A DNA stretch of 64,000 nt from positions 16,336 to 80,335 of the forward strand of contig CAZLJP010000004.1 of assembly GCA_964559915.1 (NCBI GenBank). The letters are read 5' to 3'. Under the pieces are notes generated by a model, which was not told the origin of the DNA, ran no database searches, and worked only from the letters and a program-made list of their open reading frames with translations. This DNA comes from an uncultured Candidatus Saccharibacteria bacterium (lineage in GTDB: Bacteria; Patescibacteriota; Saccharimonadia; Saccharimonadales; JALRHH01). Position numbers and translations under genes: made by a program. This document shows, in pieces, positions 2,753-50,120 of the stretch; positions within the stretch are counted from its first letter, which is position 1, and the number at the start of each line of letters is the position of its first letter.

Positions 2753-4896
2753 AGCTTTTTAAGAGGCGCGAAGGCCGTGTTGAGTTTTTTCGTCCCCTTG
2801 CCCTTAAAATAAATAACTGCTGTTTCGCCCTGCATTTCCATCACCGTACCCCGGCCAAATACATCGTGCTGCACTGCATCACCTTCGCTAAGCTCCAGTA
2901 CATAGCTCACATCCTGGTTAATGTCATAACTGGCTGATTGGTCGTACGTATTCTGCCAGCTTGAACCACCGAGACTCACACTATCGACATGGAACGAACT
3001 ATCAATTTCACTTAGAAAGCGTGATGGTGGATTGTGCTGCATGCCGCCATATAACAACCGACCCGTAGCATAGCTCAGATATAACTCACTCTTGGCGCGC
3101 GTCATGCCTACGTAGCATAGGCGACGTTCTTCTTCCATTTCTGCTTGGTCATATAGTGCCCGCGAATGAGGAAAAATTGTTTCTTCCATGCCCGTCATAA
3201 ACACCACCGGGAATTCCAGGCCCTTGGCAGCATGCAATGTCATCAGTGTCACAACGTTAACACCGTTTTCCATACTGTCGACATCGCTTACCAGCGAAAC
3301 TTCCTCGAGGAATCCATCCAAACCGAGGTCCTGGTAGCTCTTGGCTACACTAATAAGTTCACGGACGTTTTCTTGGCGAGATTCGCCCTGGATAGTTTTA
3401 TCATCAAGATAGCTAAAGTAATTGATTCGGCGCAGCAAGCTTTCAATCAACGCTGGCAGAGGTGCCTCATCCAATGTTTGGCGTGCGCTACGCAGTATGT
3501 CGCCCAGTTCATGTAGGCCAAGCTTGGCCTTGCCGGTCAGAGCAGCACATTGTTCTACGCCTTCGAGTGCTGCCTGCAAACCCAGACCATTTGCAGCTTG
3601 CCAGTCGTAGAAATTTTGCAAGGATTTAGTACCAATACCACGGGTCGGTACATTTACCACGCGTTCAAAGCTGACACGGTCCTCTGGCTGATACATCAGC
3701 CGCAGATATGCCAGTACGTCTTTGATTTCTTTGCGGTCGTAGAACCGCTGGCCACCTACGATACGGTAAGGCACACCATATCGTACAAATGCTTCTTCTA
3801 CAGAACGACTCTGGGCATTGGTGCGATACAACACCGCAAAATCCTGATAATTCCGAAAGCGCGCATCGACTGCATTTTTAACGCGGCGCACAATGCCCTC
3901 GGCTTCGGCCCGTTCGTTGGCAACTTGAATCACATCAACCGGTTTGCCACCGGTACTGTTGGTCCACAATTTTTTGTCAGAACGTTGGTCATTTTTGCTA
4001 ATTACTGCGTGTGCCGCATCAAGAATTTCTTTAGTGCTCCGGTAGTTCTGCTCTAGCTTCACAATGGTGGCTTTGGGATTATCTTTTTCGAAGTTCAAGA
4101 TATTACGGAAATCTGCCCCGCGCCAGCTATAGATACTTTGCCAGTCATCACCCACCACAGCGATGTTATTATTCTGATTGGTTAATAGTTTGACTAAGCG
4201 ATATTGCGCTGCGTTGGTGTCCTGGTACTCGTCAATCATGACGTAGTGGAACTGCCGGCGCCAGTTGTCGCGAATATCAGTATGGGTTTCTAGCAAATGA
4301 ACGGTGCGAGCAATCAAATCGTCAAAATCAAGCGCACCCGCGTTCTTTAGAATGGTTTGGTACAACGGATATACCTGAGCCGCGGCTTTCTGGACAGGGC
4401 TACTAGAGCCATATTCACCTGGTGTGACAAGCTCGTTCTTAGCGTTGCTAATGTAGGATGACAGAGTGCGGGCAGGAAAACTTTTTTCATCCAACATCAA
4501 TTGTTTACTAGCTTGTTTGATAGCAGTCTGACGGTCTGATTCGTCAAAGATTACAAAGTTTGAAGGGATGCCGATTGCTTGGCCATTCTGGCGCAGTAAC
4601 CGCACGCAAATACTATGGAAGGTACCCATGTATGGCATGAAGCTACGGTTATCAGGGTTTTGGCCCAGCAATGTAGCCACGCGTTCGCGCATTTCGCGGG
4701 CTGCCTTATTAGTAAACGTCACTGCCAAAATTTGTGGTGGCGCAGCTTTGCCGGTGGCAATGAGGTACGCAATACGGTGGGTTAGGGTTTTGGTTTTACC
4801 CGAACCAGCGCCGGCCAGAATTAAAAGAGGGCCTTCGGTAGCAGCCACAGCGCGTGCTTGCTCGTCGTTTAGCCCAGCGGTAAAGTCATCTATCAC
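2749..4896 (-). CDS. uvrD: ATP-dependent DNA helicase, UvrD/PcrA family
   Basis: Walker A AGAGSGKTKTL, DEYQDT, and QNYRST and VTLMTLHAAKGLEF motifs over 715 aa. Confidence 0.92.
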   Translation of the reverse strand: MIDDFTAGLNDEQARAVAATEGPLLILAGAGSGKTKTLTHRIAYLIATGKAAPPQILAVTFTNKAAREMRERVATLLGQNPDNRSFMPYMGTFHSICVRLLRQNGQAIGIPSNFVIFDESDRQTAIKQASKQLMLDEKSFPARTLSSYISNAKNELVTPGEYGSSSPVQKAAAQVYPLYQTILKNAGALDFDDLIARTVHLLETHTDIRDNWRRQFHYVMIDEYQDTNAAQYRLVKLLTNQNNNIAVVGDDWQSIYSWRGADFRNILNFEKDNPKATIVKLEQNYRSTKEILDAAHAVISKNDQRSDKKLWTNSTGGKPVDVIQVANERAEAEGIVRRVKNAVDARFRNYQDFAVLYRTNAQSRSVEEAFVRYGVPYRIVGGQRFYDRKEIKDVLAYLRLMYQPEDRVSFERVVNVPTRGIGTKSLQNFYDWQAANGLGLQAALEGVEQCAALTGKAKLGLHELGDILRSARQTLDEAPLPALIESLLRRINYFSYLDDKTIQGESRQENVRELISVAKSYQDLGLDGFLEEVSLVSDVDSMENGVNVVTLMTLHAAKGLEFPVVFMTGMEETIFPHSRALYDQAEMEEERRLCYVGMTRAKSELYLSYATGRLLYGGMQHNPPSRFLSEIDSSFHVDSVSLGGSSWQNTYDQSASYDINQDVSYVLELSEGDAVQHDVFGRGTVMEMQGETAVIYFKGKGTKKLNTAFAPLKKL

Positions 4897-9825: not shown

Positions 9826-9874
9826 GCCTAAATCATAGCACCTTATGTAGAAAATCGAACCCAGTTAACAGGTA

Positions 9875-33187: not shown

Positions 33188-33238
33188 AACAACTTAAAGA
33201 CCAAAGAAAATGCCTCAGACAAACTGAGACATTTTCTT

Positions 33239-33314
33239 TGGAGGGCCCACCGGGACTCGAACCCGGGACACGAGGCTTAAAAGGCCTCTGCTCTACCAAC
33301 TGAGCTATAGGCCC
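33239..33314 (-). tRNA. tRNA-Lys (anticodon TTT), CCA encoded
   Basis: GGGCCTA acceptor, anticodon arm GAGGC-CTTTTAA-GCCTC, T-arm CCGGG-TTCGAGT-CCCGG, then TCCA. Followed by a hairpin shared with the end of the convergent gene. Confidence 0.9.
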
Positions 33315-34679: not shown

Positions 34680-34828
34680 TGGTACACCCGGCAAGAGACG
34701 CACATCTGTAGCCATGCTCGATGCAAGCATCTGCGCGTGGCCTGGATGACCGAACTTTAGCTCGAATCTTGTCTCGATAAATCGAGCAGAAATTAAAACC
34801 ACCCATAAAGGGTGGCTTGAATTTCTCC
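34680..34828 (-). repeat. tRNA-Arg-associated 3'-end-duplication module (terminator, conserved structured core 34699-34770, 17-nt copy of tRNA 3' end 34680-34696)
   Basis: TGGTACACCCGGCAAGA occurs at 34680-34696 and inside the tRNA at 34829-34845. The core is shared with modules at 46964-47025 and 49884-49957. The terminator AAGCCACCC-TTTAT-GGGTGGTTTTAATTT lies at 34790-34818. Confidence 0.75.
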
Positions 34829-34905
34829 TGGTACACCCGGCAAGATTCGAACTTGCGACACCTGGTTCCGAAGACCAGTGCTCTAATCCGCTGAGCTACG
34901 GGTGC
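34829..34905 (-). tRNA. tRNA-Arg (anticodon TCG), CCA encoded
   Basis: GCACCCG/CGGGTGT acceptor (G1-U72), anticodon arm CTGGT-CTTCGGA-ACCAG, T-arm GCAAG-TTCGAAT-CTTGC, then ACCA. Confidence 0.9.
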
Positions 34906-41188: not shown

Positions 41189-41390
41189 TGTACAGAAATC
41201 TATAGCATACTACTTTGCAAAACATCCTTGCATACTGTGAAGTAAAGTTGGATAATGCGTAATAGAACAAATATCTACAGACAAGCGACTAGGGGGCGGA
41301 GTGAGCAAAACCTGGCGATTGCTTTGGATAAACTCTCTTACTAAAACCTAATTACTTGCCTAATATACGATTACAGTGAAGGAGGTCGTT

Positions 41391-44300
41391 ATGAGAAAGT
41401 TTAGTTTTCGTACCATCAAACAAAGACTTGGTATGAGTCTTATTGCCGTACTATTTAGTGCGACGCAAATTTTGTTTCCAGTATTAGCCAGTAGCACTGT
41501 CTATGCAGCCGGGGCCACTATAAACTCGAGTAATCATCAGGGTAAAAATACTGATGGTACCTGGACGAGTGGCAATACCACTCTCTATAAGGAAGGTGAT
41601 TACGCTCACTTCCGCTTTACTCTCACGGCCAATCAAGCCGCTCAGGGCTCCATGCTTGTAGTATTCTCCAACGCAGCAAACGGCTGTGCTCAATTCTTCA
41701 CAAACTACTTTAGCATTGACTCCGTAACACCGGCTGGTACTGCAACTGTCACTCCAGCGGGTGCCCCAGTTAGCGTAGCGGGTGGTGGGGGTTCTTCTGA
41801 TTGGCAGCAGCAGCTTAACCTTAACTTCAGCGCCGGCGGTAATGTAACAGTCGAGTATGTTCTACAATTCTCGTTCACTGCTGGCGACTGTAATGGCTCA
41901 AGCACCCACAGTGCTCTTGCTGCAGCCCAGAACGCTGGTGACTACAAGAATACCGGAGCACAAACAATTCCTCTGCCCGGGTCTGGTATTCTGTACGCTC
42001 CAAGCATAACAATCAACAAGACTGTTAGCGGCGGAAGTGCAGTTCCTAGTGACTTTAGCTTTACCGTTTCACCTGCTATTGGCGGGCAAACCGTCTTCCA
42101 TATCCCCAGTGGGCAAACATCCGTAACCATCCCGAACATTAATCCAGATGGCGTCTTTACTATTACCGAAAGTGGTCCAGCTGGCTACACAATGATAAGT
42201 GGTAGCGGTACAAACTGTGTTGTTACCTCGCTCGCAGATGGCAAGATGACAGCCACCGTGACCGCTGGTCGACCTGCAGTAGATGCCATTTGTAACTTTG
42301 GCAATCAGCAACAAACGGGTAGCATCAAAGTCATTAAAGATGTTGTGAATGACAATGGCGGCAACAAAACGTACGCTGACTTCACATTCACCCTTAATGG
42401 CACCACTTATAACTTCGACGCTACCACGTCACCTGATGGAGCAAAAACCGTTACTCTACCAGTCGGTGGACCCTACAGTGTAGTCGAGCCAGAGGCCGAC
42501 ACTATGGGATATGCAACAGGCTACAACAACTGCGCGAACCTGGTAGTAGTGGCCGGACAAACCCAAACGTGTACCATTACCAATAATGACGTTGCACCAT
42601 CATTAACTTTGAATAAGATTGTTAACAATGCTTTTGGTGGCGACAATCCTGAGAGTGACTGGACGCTTACAGCTAACGGTGGAAATGCCGGTGTACTATC
42701 TGGCCCAGGCGCCAATACAAACACAGATGTTGTCAGTGGCGCTGGCTTCAAAGCTGGCACCTATGCCCTCAGTGAAAATGGCCCATCAGGCTACAGCGCC
42801 AGCAGCTGGACATGTACTGGTACCGGTACACAGAATGGCAGCAATATTACGCTTGCTGCTGGTCAATCTGCTGTATGTACCATCACGAACACTGCACAGC
42901 AGCCAACACTCACTATTGTCAAAAATGTCACCAATGCCTTCGGTGGCACACTAGTTGCAAGTGATTTTGGACTAAAGGTCAATAATACTAGTCTCAGCTT
43001 TATAGCTGGTGCTCCGGGTACAACTACCGCCTACACCGCCACACCTAGTGTCAATGCCAACACCTCCTATACACTCAGTGAAATTGATGTTGCCGGATAT
43101 TCAGAGGGCAACTGGAACTGTACAGGCGGCACCTCTGGAGTGTTTAGCGGCACCAGTGTCACCCTTGACGAGGGAGAAAACGTCACCTGTACTATTACCA
43201 ACAGTGACATAGCGCCAATTATCAATATCATAAAGCTAGCGCTTAACCCTTATGGTACCGCACTCTTACCTGATGCCTTTAGCCTAACGCTCGACGGCCA
43301 ACCAGTATCTAGTGGCGTAAACAATCCTGTTACTGCTGGGTTACACATTGTTGGAGAAACGCAGCAACCTGGCTACCAGTTTACTAGCTTTGCTGGCCAG
43401 AACTGTACAGTCGATCAGCAAGGTACCTGGACGGCCTTAGGTGTCATTGGGCAGACAACCACTTGTACCATTACCAACACCGCAATCCAACCAAAGTTGA
43501 TTATCAAAAAGCACGTTGTTAACGACAACGGCGGTGGCAAGTCAGCTGGCGACTTCAATATGACCGTTAGTGGGAACGCTGTTAGTGACACGAACTTCCC
43601 AGGCGAAGAAGCTGGTACGACGGTCTATCTCAGCGAAGGCACCTACAGTGTTGACGAACTTACCGACGGTGCATACGCAAAGACGCTCAGTGAAGACTGT
43701 AGTGGCACAATCAAGATTGGCGAGACCAAGACCTGTACAATCACGAATGATGACAAGCCAGGTACACTAATCGTTAACAAGGCTGTCAAGGGCGGCGACA
43801 GCGAAGCCGAAGACTTTAGTTTCAAGATTGATGGTAGTGACACAGATTATAGCTTTGTAAACGGCCAGACAACTACTGAGGGTAGCGCACCCGTCGAGCT
43901 TAACGCTGGTACATATTCTGTCACAGAGAACGACGCCTACGGCTACGACAAAGACGACAGTGACTGTAAGAACGTTCAGGTCAAGAATGGCGATGAAGCC
44001 AGCTGTACCATCACCAATACTGCACAGCGTAAGATTACTATCTGTCACGCCACTGCCGCAGTAAAGAACCCGTATGTAACCCTATCTGTACCCATCTCAG
44101 CCGTTGACGGCACTGCTGGCAACCAAGCAGGTAAAGGTGATCATTACGGCGAACACCAGGGTCCAATCTTCGACCCCGCAGTCAACCACAACGGTGACAA
44201 CTGGGGAGATATCATCCCACCGGTGCCGCCATACCACAATGGCCTTAACTGGGACGAGGACGGCCAAGCAGCCTACGAAAATGACTGTGTTCCTCCTGCT

Positions 44301-45293
44301 AAAGTAATTGTTACCAAGTACAACGACCTCAACCGTAACGACGTACAAGATCAGGATGAACCCACCCTACCCGACTGGGAGTTCAACCTAACCGACGGTC
44401 AGTGTGACCAAGAGTTCAATATCGAGGCGTTCCTATCAAAAGCCCTCAATGAGGCAACTTGTTACGACAAAACTCAGACCACCGGCCAAGACGGCACAAC
44501 TACTTTCAAAGGTGTCGTACTAGACAACACCTACCAGTTGTCAGAAAATATCCCCGCAGATAGTAACTGGCATCTCGGTAATATCAGCTGTGATGGCGAC
44601 CAAGCAGGTCTTGATGGTAACATCTTCTACCTCGACGACATCCAGCCTGGTGTTACTATCGACTGTACTGTTGGCAACTACCGTGACGCCGTACTCAATA
44701 TTGCTAAGTCAAATAATCGTCCTAACCCAACTACCGTAGGCGACACTGTCACCTACACTCTTACCGTAACTGTCCCAGAAGACAGTGGCATGGTGTTCGA
44801 TACTGAAGTAACCGATCTGCCACCAGAAGGTTTCGAGTATGTAACCGGCAGCTGGACAGCAGATTCAAGTGTACGTGGTGACATCAAGGGCGAACTGACT
44901 CCTGAGCCAACCTACGGTTCTCCGGGTATCTGGCTACTCCGAAACCTTGTCCCAGGAGAGATTGTCACTCTCACCTACAAGGCATTAATCAAATCAAGCG
45001 TTAGTGATGGCAAATACCCAGATATCGCATTTGCGCGCGGTTGTAGCACAAACCTCGGCTGTGTACCTCAGGGTAGTGGCAATGTCATCTTTGCCAATAT
45101 CAGCACTGGTAGCAATACGCCATTTGTCGGCACTACCGTTGCCATAACCTCACCTGCGGTCATACCTGCCAATATTATCCACTACGTTAATACTGGCGCA
45201 TCAAATGTATGGCTCAACACGATTGCAGCAATTACTCTTGCGGGAGCAGCCCTGATGACACTTGTTCGCCGTGAGCAGAAAGGAACAAAGTAA
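41391..45293 (+). CDS. giant modular surface adhesin-like protein with C-terminal YVNTGA sorting signal
   Basis: AAGGAGG RBS before the ATG at 41391. Signal peptide (VLASSTVYA|AG). Seven roughly 90-104-aa modules ending in CTITN. SdrD-B/DUF11-like distal domains. C-terminus is YVNTGASNVWLNTIAAITLAGAALMTLVRREQKGTK. Confidence 0.85.
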   Translation: MRKFSFRTIKQRLGMSLIAVLFSATQILFPVLASSTVYAAGATINSSNHQGKNTDGTWTSGNTTLYKEGDYAHFRFTLTANQAAQGSMLVVFSNAANGCAQFFTNYFSIDSVTPAGTATVTPAGAPVSVAGGGGSSDWQQQLNLNFSAGGNVTVEYVLQFSFTAGDCNGSSTHSALAAAQNAGDYKNTGAQTIPLPGSGILYAPSITINKTVSGGSAVPSDFSFTVSPAIGGQTVFHIPSGQTSVTIPNINPDGVFTITESGPAGYTMISGSGTNCVVTSLADGKMTATVTAGRPAVDAICNFGNQQQTGSIKVIKDVVNDNGGNKTYADFTFTLNGTTYNFDATTSPDGAKTVTLPVGGPYSVVEPEADTMGYATGYNNCANLVVVAGQTQTCTITNNDVAPSLTLNKIVNNAFGGDNPESDWTLTANGGNAGVLSGPGANTNTDVVSGAGFKAGTYALSENGPSGYSASSWTCTGTGTQNGSNITLAAGQSAVCTITNTAQQPTLTIVKNVTNAFGGTLVASDFGLKVNNTSLSFIAGAPGTTTAYTATPSVNANTSYTLSEIDVAGYSEGNWNCTGGTSGVFSGTSVTLDEGENVTCTITNSDIAPIINIIKLALNPYGTALLPDAFSLTLDGQPVSSGVNNPVTAGLHIVGETQQPGYQFTSFAGQNCTVDQQGTWTALGVIGQTTTCTITNTAIQPKLIIKKHVVNDNGGGKSAGDFNMTVSGNAVSDTNFPGEEAGTTVYLSEGTYSVDELTDGAYAKTLSEDCSGTIKIGETKTCTITNDDKPGTLIVNKAVKGGDSEAEDFSFKIDGSDTDYSFVNGQTTTEGSAPVELNAGTYSVTENDAYGYDKDDSDCKNVQVKNGDEASCTITNTAQRKITICHATAAVKNPYVTLSVPISAVDGTAGNQAGKGDHYGEHQGPIFDPAVNHNGDNWGDIIPPVPPYHNGLNWDEDGQAAYENDCVPPAKVIVTKYNDLNRNDVQDQDEPTLPDWEFNLTDGQCDQEFNIEAFLSKALNEATCYDKTQTTGQDGTTTFKGVVLDNTYQLSENIPADSNWHLGNISCDGDQAGLDGNIFYLDDIQPGVTIDCTVGNYRDAVLNIAKSNNRPNPTTVGDTVTYTLTVTVPEDSGMVFDTEVTDLPPEGFEYVTGSWTADSSVRGDIKGELTPEPTYGSPGIWLLRNLVPGEIVTLTYKALIKSSVSDGKYPDIAFARGCSTNLGCVPQGSGNVIFANISTGSNTPFVGTTVAITSPAVIPANIIHYVNTGASNVWLNTIAAITLAGAALMTLVRREQKGTK
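41990..44020 (+). repeat. tandem intragenic domain repeats (7 modules, period about 270-312 nt)
   Basis: The Cys-x-I/F-T/G-N module ends recur at about 42291, 42571, 42876, 43188, 43464, 43734 and 44004. Each is followed by a [IL]x[IV]xK...NxxGG start. Confidence 0.7.
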
Positions 45294-45964: not shown

Positions 45965-45982
45965 AAAAACTTTACTTTAAAT

Positions 45983-46012
45983 AAAAAGCCGGTCATCAGA
46001 CCGGCTTTTTAT
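45983..46012. terminator. bidirectional intrinsic terminator
   Basis: AAAAAGCCGGTC-ATCA-GACCGGCTTTTTATTT. Confidence 0.75.
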
Positions 46013-46192
46013 TTGGGGCGAACGATGGGGATTGGCCACATTCTGCAGCCCCAAAACTTCGCTCATGGCAACATAGTTGCCAGAGGAAGATTTTCTTGCA
46101 AACAGCCACAGGCTGTTTTCACCCACGACCTTAGGGTGGGTTCGATACACATGTGCCAAATAATAAGTCCCACAAAAGTGGGACTTATTATT
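46009..46192 (-). repeat. tRNA-His-associated 3'-end-duplication module
   Basis: 26 nt (TTATTTGGGGCGAACGATGGGGATTG) at 46009-46034 equals 46188-46213. 11 nt (ACCCACGACCT) at 46121-46131 equals tRNA 46215-46225. An 86-nt insert at 46035-46120 sits at the T-loop position of the copy. The hairpin AATAATAAGTCCCAC-TTTT-GTGGGACTTATTATT directly follows the tRNA. Confidence 0.7.
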
Positions 46193-46270
46193 TGGGGCGA
46201 ACGATGGGGATTGAACCCACGACCTCCGGAACCACAACCCGGCGCTCTAACCAACTGAGCTACATTCGCC
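46193..46270 (-). tRNA. tRNA-His (anticodon GTG) with encoded G-1 and CCA
   Basis: G-1 plus GCGAATG acceptor, anticodon arm CCGGG-TTGTGGT-TCCGG, T-arm GTGGG-TTCAATC-CCCAT, C73, CCA. Confidence 0.88.
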
Positions 46271-46325: not shown

Positions 46326-46853
46326 TTATATCTGTTGGTAGTATTCTGATGATAGTAGTGCGTCTACTGCATCTGGTATATCTGATTTAGCCGGAACGCC
46401 AGACAGAATTTGAGCTTTTACTTCTTGTGGGTTAATCCAGCTAGCAGAAACAAAATCTTCTGGGTTAAACTGTGGTGTTTCATTGCTTCGATATGCGTAT
46501 AACATAGTGTAGTAACGAACATCGTCACGCCTGAACTTCTTGATAGAAACTAAGTCGGCAGGGCTAATTGTAATATTAATTTCTTCTTCGGCTTCTCGTA
46601 CAGCTGCGTCTAGATAATCTTCACCTGAATCAACGTGACCACCTACACTGAAGTCTAAACCGTTAGGCGCGATTGTCTTATCTGCCGTACGTTTAGGTAT
46701 CCAGAGTTGGCCTTGGTCGTTGATGATAAGTATGTTGGAGGCACGGATATATCCCAGTTTATCTGCTATTAATTTGCCGTAGTCTGCACGCAAAATAGTA
46801 CCGATTACGGCATCATTCTCGTCTGTCAAATCTAATAATTCTTCTTGGTGCAT
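46326..46853 (-). CDS. NUDIX hydrolase
   Basis: Nudix box GGHVDSGEDYLDAAVREAEEEINI. The start codon lies 9 nt after the tRNA-Arg(TCT) 3' end. Confidence 0.8.
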   Translation of the reverse strand: MHQEELLDLTDENDAVIGTILRADYGKLIADKLGYIRASNILIINDQGQLWIPKRTADKTIAPNGLDFSVGGHVDSGEDYLDAAVREAEEEINITISPADLVSIKKFRRDDVRYYTMLYAYRSNETPQFNPEDFVSASWINPQEVKAQILSGVPAKSDIPDAVDALLSSEYYQQI

Positions 46854-46862
46854 ACGTTTTCT

Positions 46863-46939
46863 TGGTGCCCCCGGAATGATTCGAACATTCGACCTTAGGC
46901 TTAGAAGTCCTCTGCTCTGTCCAGCTGAGCTACGGGGGC
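46863..46939 (-). tRNA. tRNA-Arg (anticodon TCT), CCA encoded, atypical anticodon stem
   Basis: Perfect acceptor GCCCCCG/CGGGGGC, D-arm, and T-arm GAATG-TTCGAAT-CATTC. The anticodon arm GAGGA-CTTCTAA-GCCTA has only 3 Watson-Crick pairs. Confidence 0.72.
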
Positions 46940-47106
46940 ATTGGTGCGGGTGCGGAGAATATAGATATAATCTTGCGGCGTGCTCGGTGCAAGCACCTGT
47001 GCGCGTCCTCGATTATCGAACTCTCGCTCGCTTTGGCTCGCTGACCGAGTTCAATCTCAGTCAATCAAACCAATTTCTAACTCTTTGCAAGCAAAGAATC
47101 AGAAAT
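46940..47106 (-). repeat. tRNA-Gly-associated 3'-end-duplication module (core 46964-47025)
   Basis: 21 nt (ATTGGTGCGGGTGCGGAGAAT) at 46940-46960 equals 47105-47125. The core is related to the Arg and Pro modules. The copy abuts the 5' end of tRNA-Arg(TCT). Confidence 0.75.
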
Positions 47107-47181
47107 TGGTGCGGGTGCGGAGAATCGAACTCCGATCTCGAGTTTGGAAAACTCATATACTAGCCGTTGTACTACACCCGC
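47107..47181 (-). tRNA. tRNA-Gly (anticodon TCC), CCA encoded
   Basis: GCGGGTG/CACCCGC acceptor, anticodon arm TGAGT-TTTCCAA-ACTCG, T-arm CGGAG-TTCGATT-CTCCG, then ACCA. Confidence 0.9.
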
Positions 47182-47252
47182 TGAACCAGCATATTATACC
47201 AGTTTACATCTGTTATAATAAGCCTAACTTAATCATCTAATGAGGGACCCCC

Positions 47253-49866: not shown

Positions 49867-50043
49867 AGAGCACGAAAGGACAATGCACATCTACGGCCAT
49901 GCTCGAAGTAAACTTCTGTGCCTGGCCTTGATGACCGAACCTTCGACCTACAATCTTTTTCACTAGCGAAAAATCTTGGGTCGAAGGTTCGAGGACTGAG
50001 CACTGACCAAACAAAAAGCCCATCTTTCGATGGACTTTTTGTT
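49867..50043 (-). repeat. tRNA-Pro-associated module (terminator 50013-50040, inverted T-arm copies, core 49884-49957, diverged 3' copy)
   Basis: CGAACCTTCGACCT at 49936-49949 equals tRNA 50063-50076. GAAAGGAC at 49874-49881 equals 50054-50061. An opposite-orientation copy GGTCGAAGGTTCGAG lies at 49979-49993. The core is near-identical to the Arg module. Confidence 0.7.
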
Positions 50044-50120
50044 TGGTCGGGGTGAAAGGACTCGAACCTTCGACCTGACGGTCCCAAACCGTCCGCGCTA
50101 GCCAACTGCGCCACACCCCG
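50044..50120 (-). tRNA. tRNA-Pro (anticodon TGG), CCA encoded
   Basis: CGGGGTG/CACCCCG acceptor, anticodon arm GACGG-TTTGGGA-CCGTC, T-arm GAAGG-TTCGAGT-CCTTT, then ACCA. Confidence 0.9.

Follow-up and report, generated by a model that had tools for sequence, protein, structure and literature searches.

Introduction

Integrative islands that target tRNA genes insert at the 3′ part of the tRNA and regenerate an intact tRNA; the displaced 3′ segment marks the far end of the island, and insertions can stack at one tRNA. Williams is said to have set out, in 2002, a sublocation scheme for the islands and prophages that tyrosine integrases place at tRNA genes. Here we describe elements that share these features in a 64,000-nt stretch of DNA from an uncultured Candidatus Saccharibacteria bacterium (assembly GCA_964559915.1, contig CAZLJP010000004.1, positions 16,336 to 80,335 of the forward strand; referred to as the window), the one behind tRNA-Gly(TCC) being the locus under study. 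The elements, which we call modules, form a previously undescribed family tied to the tRNA genes of Saccharimonadales, and each is about 165 nt long and gene-less. A direct repeat of the tRNA 3′ end bounds the insert and the intact tRNA stands at the proximal junction, as in integrative elements. Unlike the islands, the modules measure only about 165 nt and neither an integrase nor any other gene was found in them; they also carry an antisense copy of the T-arm and a core inside the distal T-loop, and no phage or plasmid form was found.

A second group of described systems comprises folded single-stranded recombination sites, such as the integron attC site and the attP(+) hairpin of CTX-phi, which is used by XerCD, and in these inverted copies of the target fold to mimic the target. 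They resemble the modules in having a structure that is better conserved than the sequence, a variable terminal hairpin, conserved unpaired or bulged bases, inverted target copies that fold as a mimic of the target, and a GTT at the junction. They differ in that the target of the module is the T-arm of a tRNA and not attI or dif, and in that neither an integron integrase nor a cassette array is present. The pair GTTCGRT/CGAAC has one or two mismatches to the R′/R″ boxes of attC (GTTRRRY/RYYYAAC), and helix P2 of the core contains a bulged A. An identity as an integron attC site was rejected because its R and L boxes depart from the attC consensus, the order of the boxes differs and the loci have no cassette open reading frames (ORFs) and no intI.

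REP/BIME elements, palindromes derived from IS200/IS605, Correia elements and RPE are likewise short, gene-less, dispersed, hairpin-forming and intergenic, and are often read through, but the modules stand strictly at tRNA 3′ ends and are flanked by copies of the local tRNA, sense as well as antisense. Finally, plant mitochondrial t-elements, the mascRNA of MALAT1 and tRNA-linked viral miRNA precursors place an acceptor/T-arm-like helix beside another RNA, an arrangement that would let RNase P or 3′ processing enzymes set the ends. In a comparable way, the Gly module adjoins the 5′ end of a tRNA. Those RNAs, however, are not repeats of the neighbouring tRNA, lack the hairpin core in the T-loop and are not patchy insertions.

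Results

The module behind tRNA-Gly(TCC)

Seven tRNA genes were called in the window by ARAGORN and the Rfam tRNA model, and a module is present at four of them. The intact tRNA-Gly(TCC) gene (47107-47181, minus strand; ARAGORN, and 64.6 bits with the Rfam tRNA model) is the first boundary of the locus studied here. Its 3′ end lies within the 21-mer ATTGGTGCGGGTGCGGAGAAT, which comprises T-loop nucleotides 58-60, the 3′ strand of the T-stem, the 3′ strand of the acceptor stem, ACCA and 2 further nt. This sequence has exactly two exact occurrences in the window, a proximal copy at 47105-47125 and a distal copy at 46940-46960, both on the minus strand, and the final base of the latter adjoins the first base of tRNA-Arg(TCT) (46863-46939, minus strand; ARAGORN and Rfam). 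No further copy with three or fewer mismatches was detected on either strand of the window, and no match occurred in 100 dinucleotide-preserving shuffles. This bears out the exact pair of repeats, abutting tRNA-Arg(TCT), that a first-pass annotation of the sequence had reported. The annotation had, however, treated the 21-nt copy as a feature on its own, whereas it is actually the 3′ piece of a second, partial tRNA copy that is interrupted by a core.

Read along the minus strand, the segment between the two copies begins with a predicted 19-bp trailer hairpin that starts at the ACCA end of tRNA-Gly (47069-47110). It is followed by S′ (47041-47069), a decayed antisense copy of the acceptor and T-arm of tRNA-Gly, whose antisense alignment (GAGATTGAACTC against GAGAATCGAACTC) is weak (p about 0.16) and which is predicted to form a separate hairpin, with a U-G pair on the tRNA-sense strand. 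Next come the pre-rod segment CGAGCCAAAGCGAGCGAGA (47022-47040), with AGCGA motifs and a diverged copy of the 5′ strand of the T-stem, and the conserved core itself, a hairpin that we call the type-1 rod (46965-47021; 76.9 bits and E = 2e-18 with the covariance model R1). The linker ATCTAT (46961-46966) then leads to the distal copy of the tRNA 3′ end. The 165-nt spacer has a predicted folding energy of -65.2 kcal/mol (z = -5.8 against shuffles), and the only ORFs in the insert are spurious ones that overlap the tRNAs.

Layout of the family

All real matches to the core, in the window and in the contigs designated by handles such as L033, have a common architecture. An intact tRNA ends in the sense segment S (nucleotide 58 to CCA) and is followed by the trailer hairpin; then come S′, antisense to the T-arm or acceptor, and a small G+C hairpin; and these are followed by a copy of the T-stem 5′ strand with GTTCG, the rod, a linker and S once more, again in the sense orientation. 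The rod interrupts the T-loop just after G57, within the second partial copy of the tRNA 3′ region. The cleanest case is L033, in which an exact 46-nt copy of the tRNA region contains the rod precisely between G57 and A58; the left flanks of the rod are exact over 14-15 nt both there and in the module behind tRNA-Pro in the window. All modules lie on the strand of their tRNA, and the rod, the antisense copy and the small hairpin nearly always occur together. Within one genome, the rod is the only part common to modules at different tRNAs.

The antisense copies were scored by alignment to the antisense tRNA with shuffles as a control, and the T-arm copy was significant (p ≤ 0.01) in 10 of the 17 modules tested; in L097 it contains an exact 14-mer that runs through the acceptor and the CCA. 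The small hairpin between the antisense and the sense copies has the loop AAA, GAA, TTT or GCA. In other members the linker measures 0-30 nt and sometimes includes an extra hairpin or the sequence CCCAAAGGAGCGTyAGCGACGACGG. In many modules, short motifs of the type AGCGA/GAGCG recur on both sides of the rod (CAGCGAGCCAAAGCGAGCGAG, GAGCGAAGCGAA and GGAGCGTyAGCGACGACGG; for example, at 47022-47040 in the window and 494-518 in L033), and may be iterated protein-binding sites.

Behind half of the tRNAs that are followed by a type-1 rod (9/18), the 15-nt tRNA tail is copied without mismatch, and behind the other nine it is truncated or decayed. The length of the direct repeat varies from 8 to about 56 nt, and in the His module of the window and in L033, L069 and L089 it runs past the CCA into the trailer hairpin. 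Because the length varies and the repeat can pass the CCA, it is best described as a displaced gene end and not as a target duplication of fixed length.

In L090, L062 and L097, S′ and the distal S are predicted to pair as the closing helix of a Y-shaped fold, whose arms are the second hairpin and the rod and whose 3′ tail is the acceptor strand with its CCA. The idea that every module also carries an acceptor 5′ strand, giving a minihelix, was dropped, as it is true of the Gly modules only.

A trailer hairpin of 17-21 bp, with its stem starting at the NCCA end, stands behind nearly every tRNA in the Saccharimonadales loci collected (for example, at 33190-33242, 46155-46196 and 50005-50047 in the window, and behind most tRNAs in L020-L117). 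It is present with or without a rod and is therefore not specific to the modules. The long hairpin that the first-pass annotation placed between the two repeats is thus indeed predicted, at the position given above, but it is not a part of the module. The trailer consists of an A-tract, a G+C stem, a T-tract and a TGG that pairs with the CCA, so that the encoded CCA end would be base-paired with the trailer. Most modules of the family sit 3′ of such a terminator-like hairpin with a G+C-rich stem and a T-tract, and co-transcription with the tRNA is therefore not general to the family.

Structure and covariation of the rod

The rod is about 57 nt long and consists of GTTCG (T-loop region, nucleotides 53-57), helix P1, an internal loop, helix P2, a conserved loop and a terminal helix, P3. 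In the Gly copy, P1 is ATAATC/GATTAT, P2 is GG-A-CG/CGCC plus GC/GC, and the conserved loop CACAG/GA is followed by the variable hairpin P3, which ranges from 4 to 12 bp across the family. An alignment of 23 cores (A2) was the source of the covariance model. With the proposed structure, 83% of the cells were paired, compared with 73% in shuffles and 28-40% in controls in which the pairing partners were slid. There were 44 double-change cells against 15 expected, a number reached by none of 500 shuffles, and covariation is seen at pair 8-70, at pair 18-59 and at the three inner pairs of P3. The loci had been selected with a sequence pattern in which GTTCG and several loop bases are invariant, and the relevant covariation lies at positions that this pattern leaves free. 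Structural constraint thus acts on the rod, in agreement with the conserved structure with compensatory changes proposed from the window alone.

Searches of Rfam release 15 at the gathering score returned only tRNAs in the window and no family for the rod. At E ≤ 10, the two module regions gave only sub-threshold chance matches, for example, to miRNA models, to YrlA (16.7 of 69 bits) and to the permuted tmRNA (11 of 47 bits).

Other modules and remnants in the window

The conserved core (repeat family D2) occurs three times in the window, at 34700-34758, 46966-47024 and 49885-49943, behind tRNA-Arg(TCG), tRNA-Gly(TCC) and tRNA-Pro(TGG), respectively. Searched against the window, the covariance model detected exactly these three copies, with 70-77 bits and E values of about 1e-16 to 1e-18; the first-pass annotation had also counted three versions. 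The Gly core had been described as the most diverged, which agrees with its identity to the reference copy (69%, against 81% for Pro), and it differs by paired changes: pair 8-70 is A-T against C-G in the other two, pair 18-59 is G-C against A-T, and the stem of P3 also differs.

The module behind tRNA-Arg(TCG) (tRNA at 34829-34905) spans 34680-34828 on the minus strand and comprises the trailer hairpin, the antisense T-arm CAAGATTCGAGCT, the rod (34699-34755) and, at 34680-34696, 17 nt that match the tRNA 3′ end exactly. The module behind tRNA-Pro(TGG) (tRNA at 50044-50120) spans 49874-50043, also on the minus strand, and in it the trailer hairpin is followed by an exact 15-nt antisense copy, CTCGAACCTTCGACC (49979-49993), by 14 nt of the variable loop and T-stem copied exactly in the sense orientation (49936-49949) and by the rod (49884-49940); its copy of the tRNA 3′ end (49874-49881) is decayed.

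The fourth module, behind tRNA-His (46193-46269), lies at 45979-46192 on the minus strand and has the same scaffold with an unrelated core. This second type of core measures 86 nt (46035-46120), starts with GAAAACAGCCTGTGGCTGTTTGCAAG, ends with CTGCAGAATGTGGC, and lies in a partial tRNA-His copy, where it was inserted after T54; 3′ of the core, the tRNA 3′ end is repeated together with its terminator (45979-46034).

Downstream of tRNA-Glu(TTC) and its hairpin, a T-arm-like remnant, CTGGGTTCGATTTTC, was seen at 9850-9864 on the minus strand, with no rod. It may be the relic of a partial tRNA copy.

Distribution of the family

The three-core pattern was scanned over 185,579 species genomes and gave 75 loci, seven of them real, and all seven belong to Saccharibacteria or Saccharimonadales assemblies; the other 68 were chance matches in G+C-rich coding DNA. 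A scan of metagenomes added about 13 more distinct copies, contigs with homologues of the NUDIX hydrolase encoded next to the Gly locus gave two divergent rods, and the covariance model also finds weaker, divergent copies outside the window. Overall, about 20 further loci were recovered, and every named genome among them is from Saccharibacteria/Saccharimonadales.

At least 11 tRNA species carry rods, among them Lys-TTT, Pro-TGG, Glu-CTC, Glu-TTC, Thr-CGT, Leu-CAA, Gly-TCC, Arg-CCT, Arg-TCG and, in divergent form, Asp. The module is dispensable, and its presence at a given tRNA is patchy: modules follow tRNA-Lys(TTT) in L020, L024 and L092 but not in the window, tRNA-His in the window and L084 but not in L112, and tRNA-Thr(CGT) in L062 and L114 but not in L091. 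The genomes that have no module at a given tRNA (L112 for His, L091 for Thr-Gly, the window for Lys) are too diverged for the junctions to be defined. Of the roughly twenty contigs in the family, about ten stop within ~450 nt of the rod or inside the adjacent tRNA (such ends lie near the rods of L028, L051, L069, L081, L090, L094, L097, L099 and L110), consistent with tandem copies or strain heterogeneity having broken the assembly at these sites. A full-text literature search returned no account of the modules and a single unrelated paper, on group I introns in the anticodon loops of patescibacterial tRNAs (PMC13011429).

Tandem, gene-carrying and decayed versions

Two nearly identical modules lie head to tail at the start of contig L069. 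At tRNA-Arg(CCT) of L091, an ORF for a membrane-like protein of 123 aa stands between the tRNA and the rod with its S copy. Also in L091 (8960-10975, minus strand), the 3′ end of tRNA-Asp recurs three times in succession behind the gene, and between these copies are a third type of core, a gene for a GIY-YIG nuclease, a 275-aa ORF and a fragment of an IS1595 transposase; this array also holds a weak type-1 rod (33 bits). No integrase was detected in these gene-carrying versions (123-aa ORF, GIY-YIG gene, IS1595 fragment). A gene for a toxin of the YafQ/ParE type is situated just past the tRNA-Asp array.

Three unrelated cores hence share one scaffold: type 1, the type of His and Lys(CTT), and the type of Asp. 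The 86-nt core after T54 is present at tRNA-His of the window, tRNA-His of L084 and tRNA-Lys(CTT) of L096. Since the copy in the window is closer to that of L096 (78% identity) than to its ortholog at tRNA-His of L084 (59%), the sequences suggest that this core has moved between loci.

Decay was observed in different parts of the module. The Pro module of L084 has lost the conserved parts of the rod, while that of the window has kept the rod and its S copy is decayed. Partial tRNA copies also exist without any rod (the second Asp copy of L091, a copy of the tRNA-Arg 5′ end in L084 and the tRNA-Glu remnant of the window). The L084 copy (2950-3090, minus strand) is a partial 5′ end of tRNA-Arg(TCT) up to the D-loop, GCCCTGGTAGCTCAGCTGG, located upstream of that tRNA and followed by a small hairpin and an antisense-like D-arm segment; the arrangement looks like a mirror-image version of the sense/antisense/sense order, on the 5′ side. 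The module of L089 (1700-2000, minus strand) lacks an intact tRNA partner: no tRNA is recognised upstream of it, where the copy of the 3′ end is degenerate, whereas the distal copy is a good tRNA-Glu 3′ end followed by a terminator.

Comparison with a syntenic relative

Contig L084 comes from a syntenic relative in which the Gly, Arg(TCT), His and Pro tRNAs are arranged as in the window. The tRNAs for Arg(TCT), His and Pro are 87%-91% identical between the two, compared with only 69%-75% for tRNA-Gly(TCC), the one with the best-conserved module, which in L084 is at 3265-3339 and shows compensatory differences in its acceptor, anticodon and T stems. The explanation is either replacement of this tRNA or faster evolution of its stems. 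Within the Gly module, identity is 51% in the trailer hairpin, 48% in the antisense region, 89% in the pre-rod segment (19 nt) and 87% in the rod, where the changes are mostly compensatory. The sense and antisense copies track the tRNA sequence of their own genome, and where the T-stem copy has changed, the distal strand of the T-stem has changed with it (the pair is A-T in the window and G-C in L084). These part-by-part identities argue that the rod is selected or was recently exchanged, and that the tRNA-derived parts change in concert with the tRNA.

Transcription and surroundings of the Gly locus

An extended -10-like element, TGGTATAAT, was read upstream of tRNA-Gly (47193-47201, minus strand); it was not called in the consensus promoter scan, a good -35 being absent. 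Between tRNA-Gly and tRNA-Arg(TCT), no promoter-like site was detected, either by the consensus scan or by eye, nor was any found between TGGTATAAT and the NUDIX hydrolase gene (46326-46853, minus strand; Pfam PF00293, E = 5e-17), which begins 9 nt 3′ of tRNA-Arg(TCT). That tRNA has no promoter of its own in the consensus scan, and the scan also gave no terminator-like site at the Gly hairpin. Because tRNA-Arg(TCT) and the NUDIX gene lie behind the Gly module with no promoter between, the module is almost certainly inside a transcript by read-through from tRNA-Gly, and tRNA-Arg(TCT) is probably reached in the same way; RNase P cleavage at tRNA-Arg(TCT) would set the 3′ end of the module transcript. 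The co-transcription postulated earlier is accordingly well founded for the Gly locus and does not extend to the family, most members of which stand behind a terminator-like hairpin.

The proteins that flank the locus are a P-type ATPase and the NUDIX hydrolase, the homologues of which are from Saccharimonadales. Elsewhere in the window, on the plus strand (41376-45293), is a gene for a 1305-aa protein with several prealbumin-fold domains of the SpaA type, as in Gram-positive pilins and adhesins, and within that gene are DNA repeats with a spacing of 270 nt (43464-44028). RNase Y is also encoded in the window; it, the SpaA-type pilin and the Saccharimonadales homologues of the NUDIX hydrolase bear out the lineage.

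Discussion

The reading that we favour, and hold tentatively, is that the module is a non-autonomous insertion element that recombines at the 3′ end of tRNA genes, and that the rod together with the Y-fold is its selected cis-acting part. An element carrying its own S would recombine with a chromosomal tRNA gene inside S; one S would then complete the tRNA and the other would be pushed downstream, just as happens when integrative islands enter tRNA genes. The rod, the S′:S helix and the neighbouring hairpin would form the Y-shaped single-stranded fold, and this fold would be the part under selection, presumably because a recombinase or nuclease supplied in trans recognises it. We infer that recombination takes place, that the element adopts a single-stranded form and that a trans-acting enzyme exists; what was observed comprises the anatomy of the modules and their family, the covariation of the rod, the patchy presence, the tandem modules and the gene-carrying versions. 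Insertion by recombination within S would be expected to give exact repeats of variable length, an intact proximal tRNA and a displaced distal end, stacking, gene-carrying versions, tandem copies, decay and patchiness, all of which are seen, and the two other core types on the scaffold likewise point to a mobile origin. For an insertion of this kind, the modules are unusual in lacking any gene, in carrying S′ and in having a conserved single-stranded structure at the junction. Dependence on transcription of the tRNA is argued against by the hairpin with a G+C stem and T-tract that precedes most modules. The patchiness, tandem array, cargo and decay also speak against the dedicated RNA of a tRNA operon that the first-pass annotation had in mind.

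Several observations weigh against this proposal. Neither a recombinase nor a transposase or reverse transcriptase was detected inside or beside any minimal module, and 165 nt is far below the size of known autonomous elements. Neither the antisense S′ nor the position of the rod inside the distal T-loop is explained by the ordinary tyrosine-integrase model. Neither a near-identical empty site nor an excised circle was recovered, and the synteny of the NUDIX contigs is lost beyond close relatives. In the 2.9 million viral contigs of IMG/VR, the rod gave only chance matches, with the strict pattern or without GTTCG, all rejected by the covariance model, and the type-2 core signature gave no copy; GenBank phages match only the tRNA-Gly part, with no rod, so that no form outside the chromosome is known. 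The strand test is weak, with 14 G-U against 15 A-C cells; 12 of the A-C cells fall at one subtype-specific position (16-61), and without it the count becomes 13 against 3, favouring the tRNA-sense strand. Finally, the window genome and L084 have modules in common at tRNA-Gly, tRNA-His and tRNA-Pro, so that stable vertical inheritance is possible, and such inheritance, together with the high conservation of the rod, also fits an RNA that benefits the host.

A structured host RNA is accordingly the strongest alternative, possible though on balance unlikely, and it and an insertion module are not mutually exclusive. The rod would sit on a mimic of the acceptor/T-arm minihelix and end in the tRNA 3′ strand and CCA. 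Such an RNA would arise when transcription from the tRNA promoter reads through, would be trimmed by the enzymes that process tRNAs, and could act, for example, as a protein-binding decoy, as a processing signal or as a switch based on S′/S pairing. The covariation favours a single-stranded fold on the tRNA-sense strand, as does the U-G pair in the Gly S′, and all modules are on the strand of the tRNA. The rod and pre-rod are conserved at 87%-89% even though tRNA-Gly is only 69%-75% identical, and the T-stem copy stays in step with the distal strand. Transcription through the Gly module would be needed for expression of tRNA-Arg(TCT) and the NUDIX gene, and the Y-folds predicted in L090, L062 and L097 leave a free acceptor-CCA tail. 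However, most modules lie behind a terminator-like hairpin and no promoter was found, their presence varies by genome and by tRNA, and copies decay. Moreover, each locus needs sense and antisense segments specific to its tRNA, for which point mutation is insufficient and a copying mechanism is required, and neither tandem nor gene-carrying versions are expected of a housekeeping RNA.

The insertion-module reading can be made more specific, in a form that we consider speculative and somewhat unlikely. The modules would be a new class of miniature elements in which the S′:S stem of the Y-fold mimics the double-stranded 3′ end of one specific tRNA gene and the rod recruits a recombinase or nuclease acting in trans, so that insertion at the T-loop or 3′ end of tRNA genes would need no protein encoded by the element. 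By analogy, this would be a tRNA-targeting counterpart of the hairpin recombination of attC and CTX-phi in a phylum whose genomes are minimal, with at least three unrelated cores.

It is less probable still, and in our view doubtful, that the rod by itself is a tiny insertion sequence specific for the T-loop and of the single-stranded DNA hairpin type, like the palindromic derivatives of IS200/IS605 or REP-like units. It would enter without duplication just 3′ of GTTCG and survive only in redundant partial tRNA copies, these having arisen in other ways, for example by fold-back repair or template switching at the trailer hairpin. The clean insertion between G57 and A58 in L033 and the exact left flanks of 14-15 nt there and in the Pro module of the window suit this idea, as do the second hairpin seen in some members, the status of the rod as the sole part shared across the tRNAs of one genome, the existence of partial tRNA copies free of a rod, and the constraint on structure in the single-stranded form. 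On the other hand, the rod, the antisense copy and the small hairpin nearly always co-occur, a single hairpin of 57 nt is smaller than known derivatives of that kind, no HUH transposase was found, though no search aimed at one was made, and two unrelated cores, those of type 2 included, enter the same scaffold at another position of the T-loop, after T54.

That the modules are passive scars, attL/attR leftovers of deleted prophages or islands with a functionless piece of a phage attachment region as the core, is very improbable: repeats of the tRNA 3′ end in direct orientation are a hallmark of insertion by an integrase and the insertions stacked at tRNA-Asp of L091 do include foreign genes, but the minimal form of ~150-200 nt is the rule in about 20 loci, compensatory pairing is kept, the rod is more conserved than its tRNA and absent from the viral contigs and phages searched, and the core breaks the T-loop, where the overlap of att sites should be continuous.

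Other identities were considered and rejected. A classical miniature inverted-repeat transposable element does not apply, as the inverted S′ and S are copies of the local tRNA that differ at each locus, and the repeat varies from 8 to about 56 nt. The modules are not tRNA introns of either the group I or the archaeal bulge-helix-bulge type, as the copy that the rod interrupts has none of the 5′ half of the tRNA; in addition, a group I core would not fit into 57 nt and no Rfam intron was matched, and the predicted folds show no 3-nt bulges flanking a 4-bp helix at the junctions. By eye, the rod does not fit the kink-turn, loop E or domain IV of the signal recognition particle RNA, nor the cores of the hammerhead, twister, pistol, hatchet and hairpin ribozymes. 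Judged in the same manner, resemblances to the Rep-binding repeats of the inverted terminal repeats of adeno-associated virus, to CS-6/RSB of ssoA and to the nic sites of relaxases are likely coincidental. Guide RNAs were dropped as well: for a CRISPR or homing-spacer guide, there is no nearby protein or array; for a guide of the TnpB type, no nearby protein, and it would target the intact tRNA gene of the cell itself; and for a bridge RNA, no nearby protein, the internal loops of the rod being conserved and not programmable.

Saccharimonadales and other Patescibacteria have tiny genomes in which each intergenic base is under pressure, and yet four of the seven tRNAs of the window carry an appendage of 150-200 nt, the core of which, in the Gly module, is better conserved between genomes than the tRNA itself. 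The partial tRNA copies derived from modules can confuse tRNA annotation, and contigs often end nearby; the modules may also speed the evolution of the tRNA stems that they copy. If the modules are RNAs, they would constitute a new class of structured RNA on a tRNA-like scaffold. If they are mobile, they would be gene-less DNA that colonises tRNA genes without destroying them, and would point to an as yet unidentified recombination activity in an uncultured phylum.

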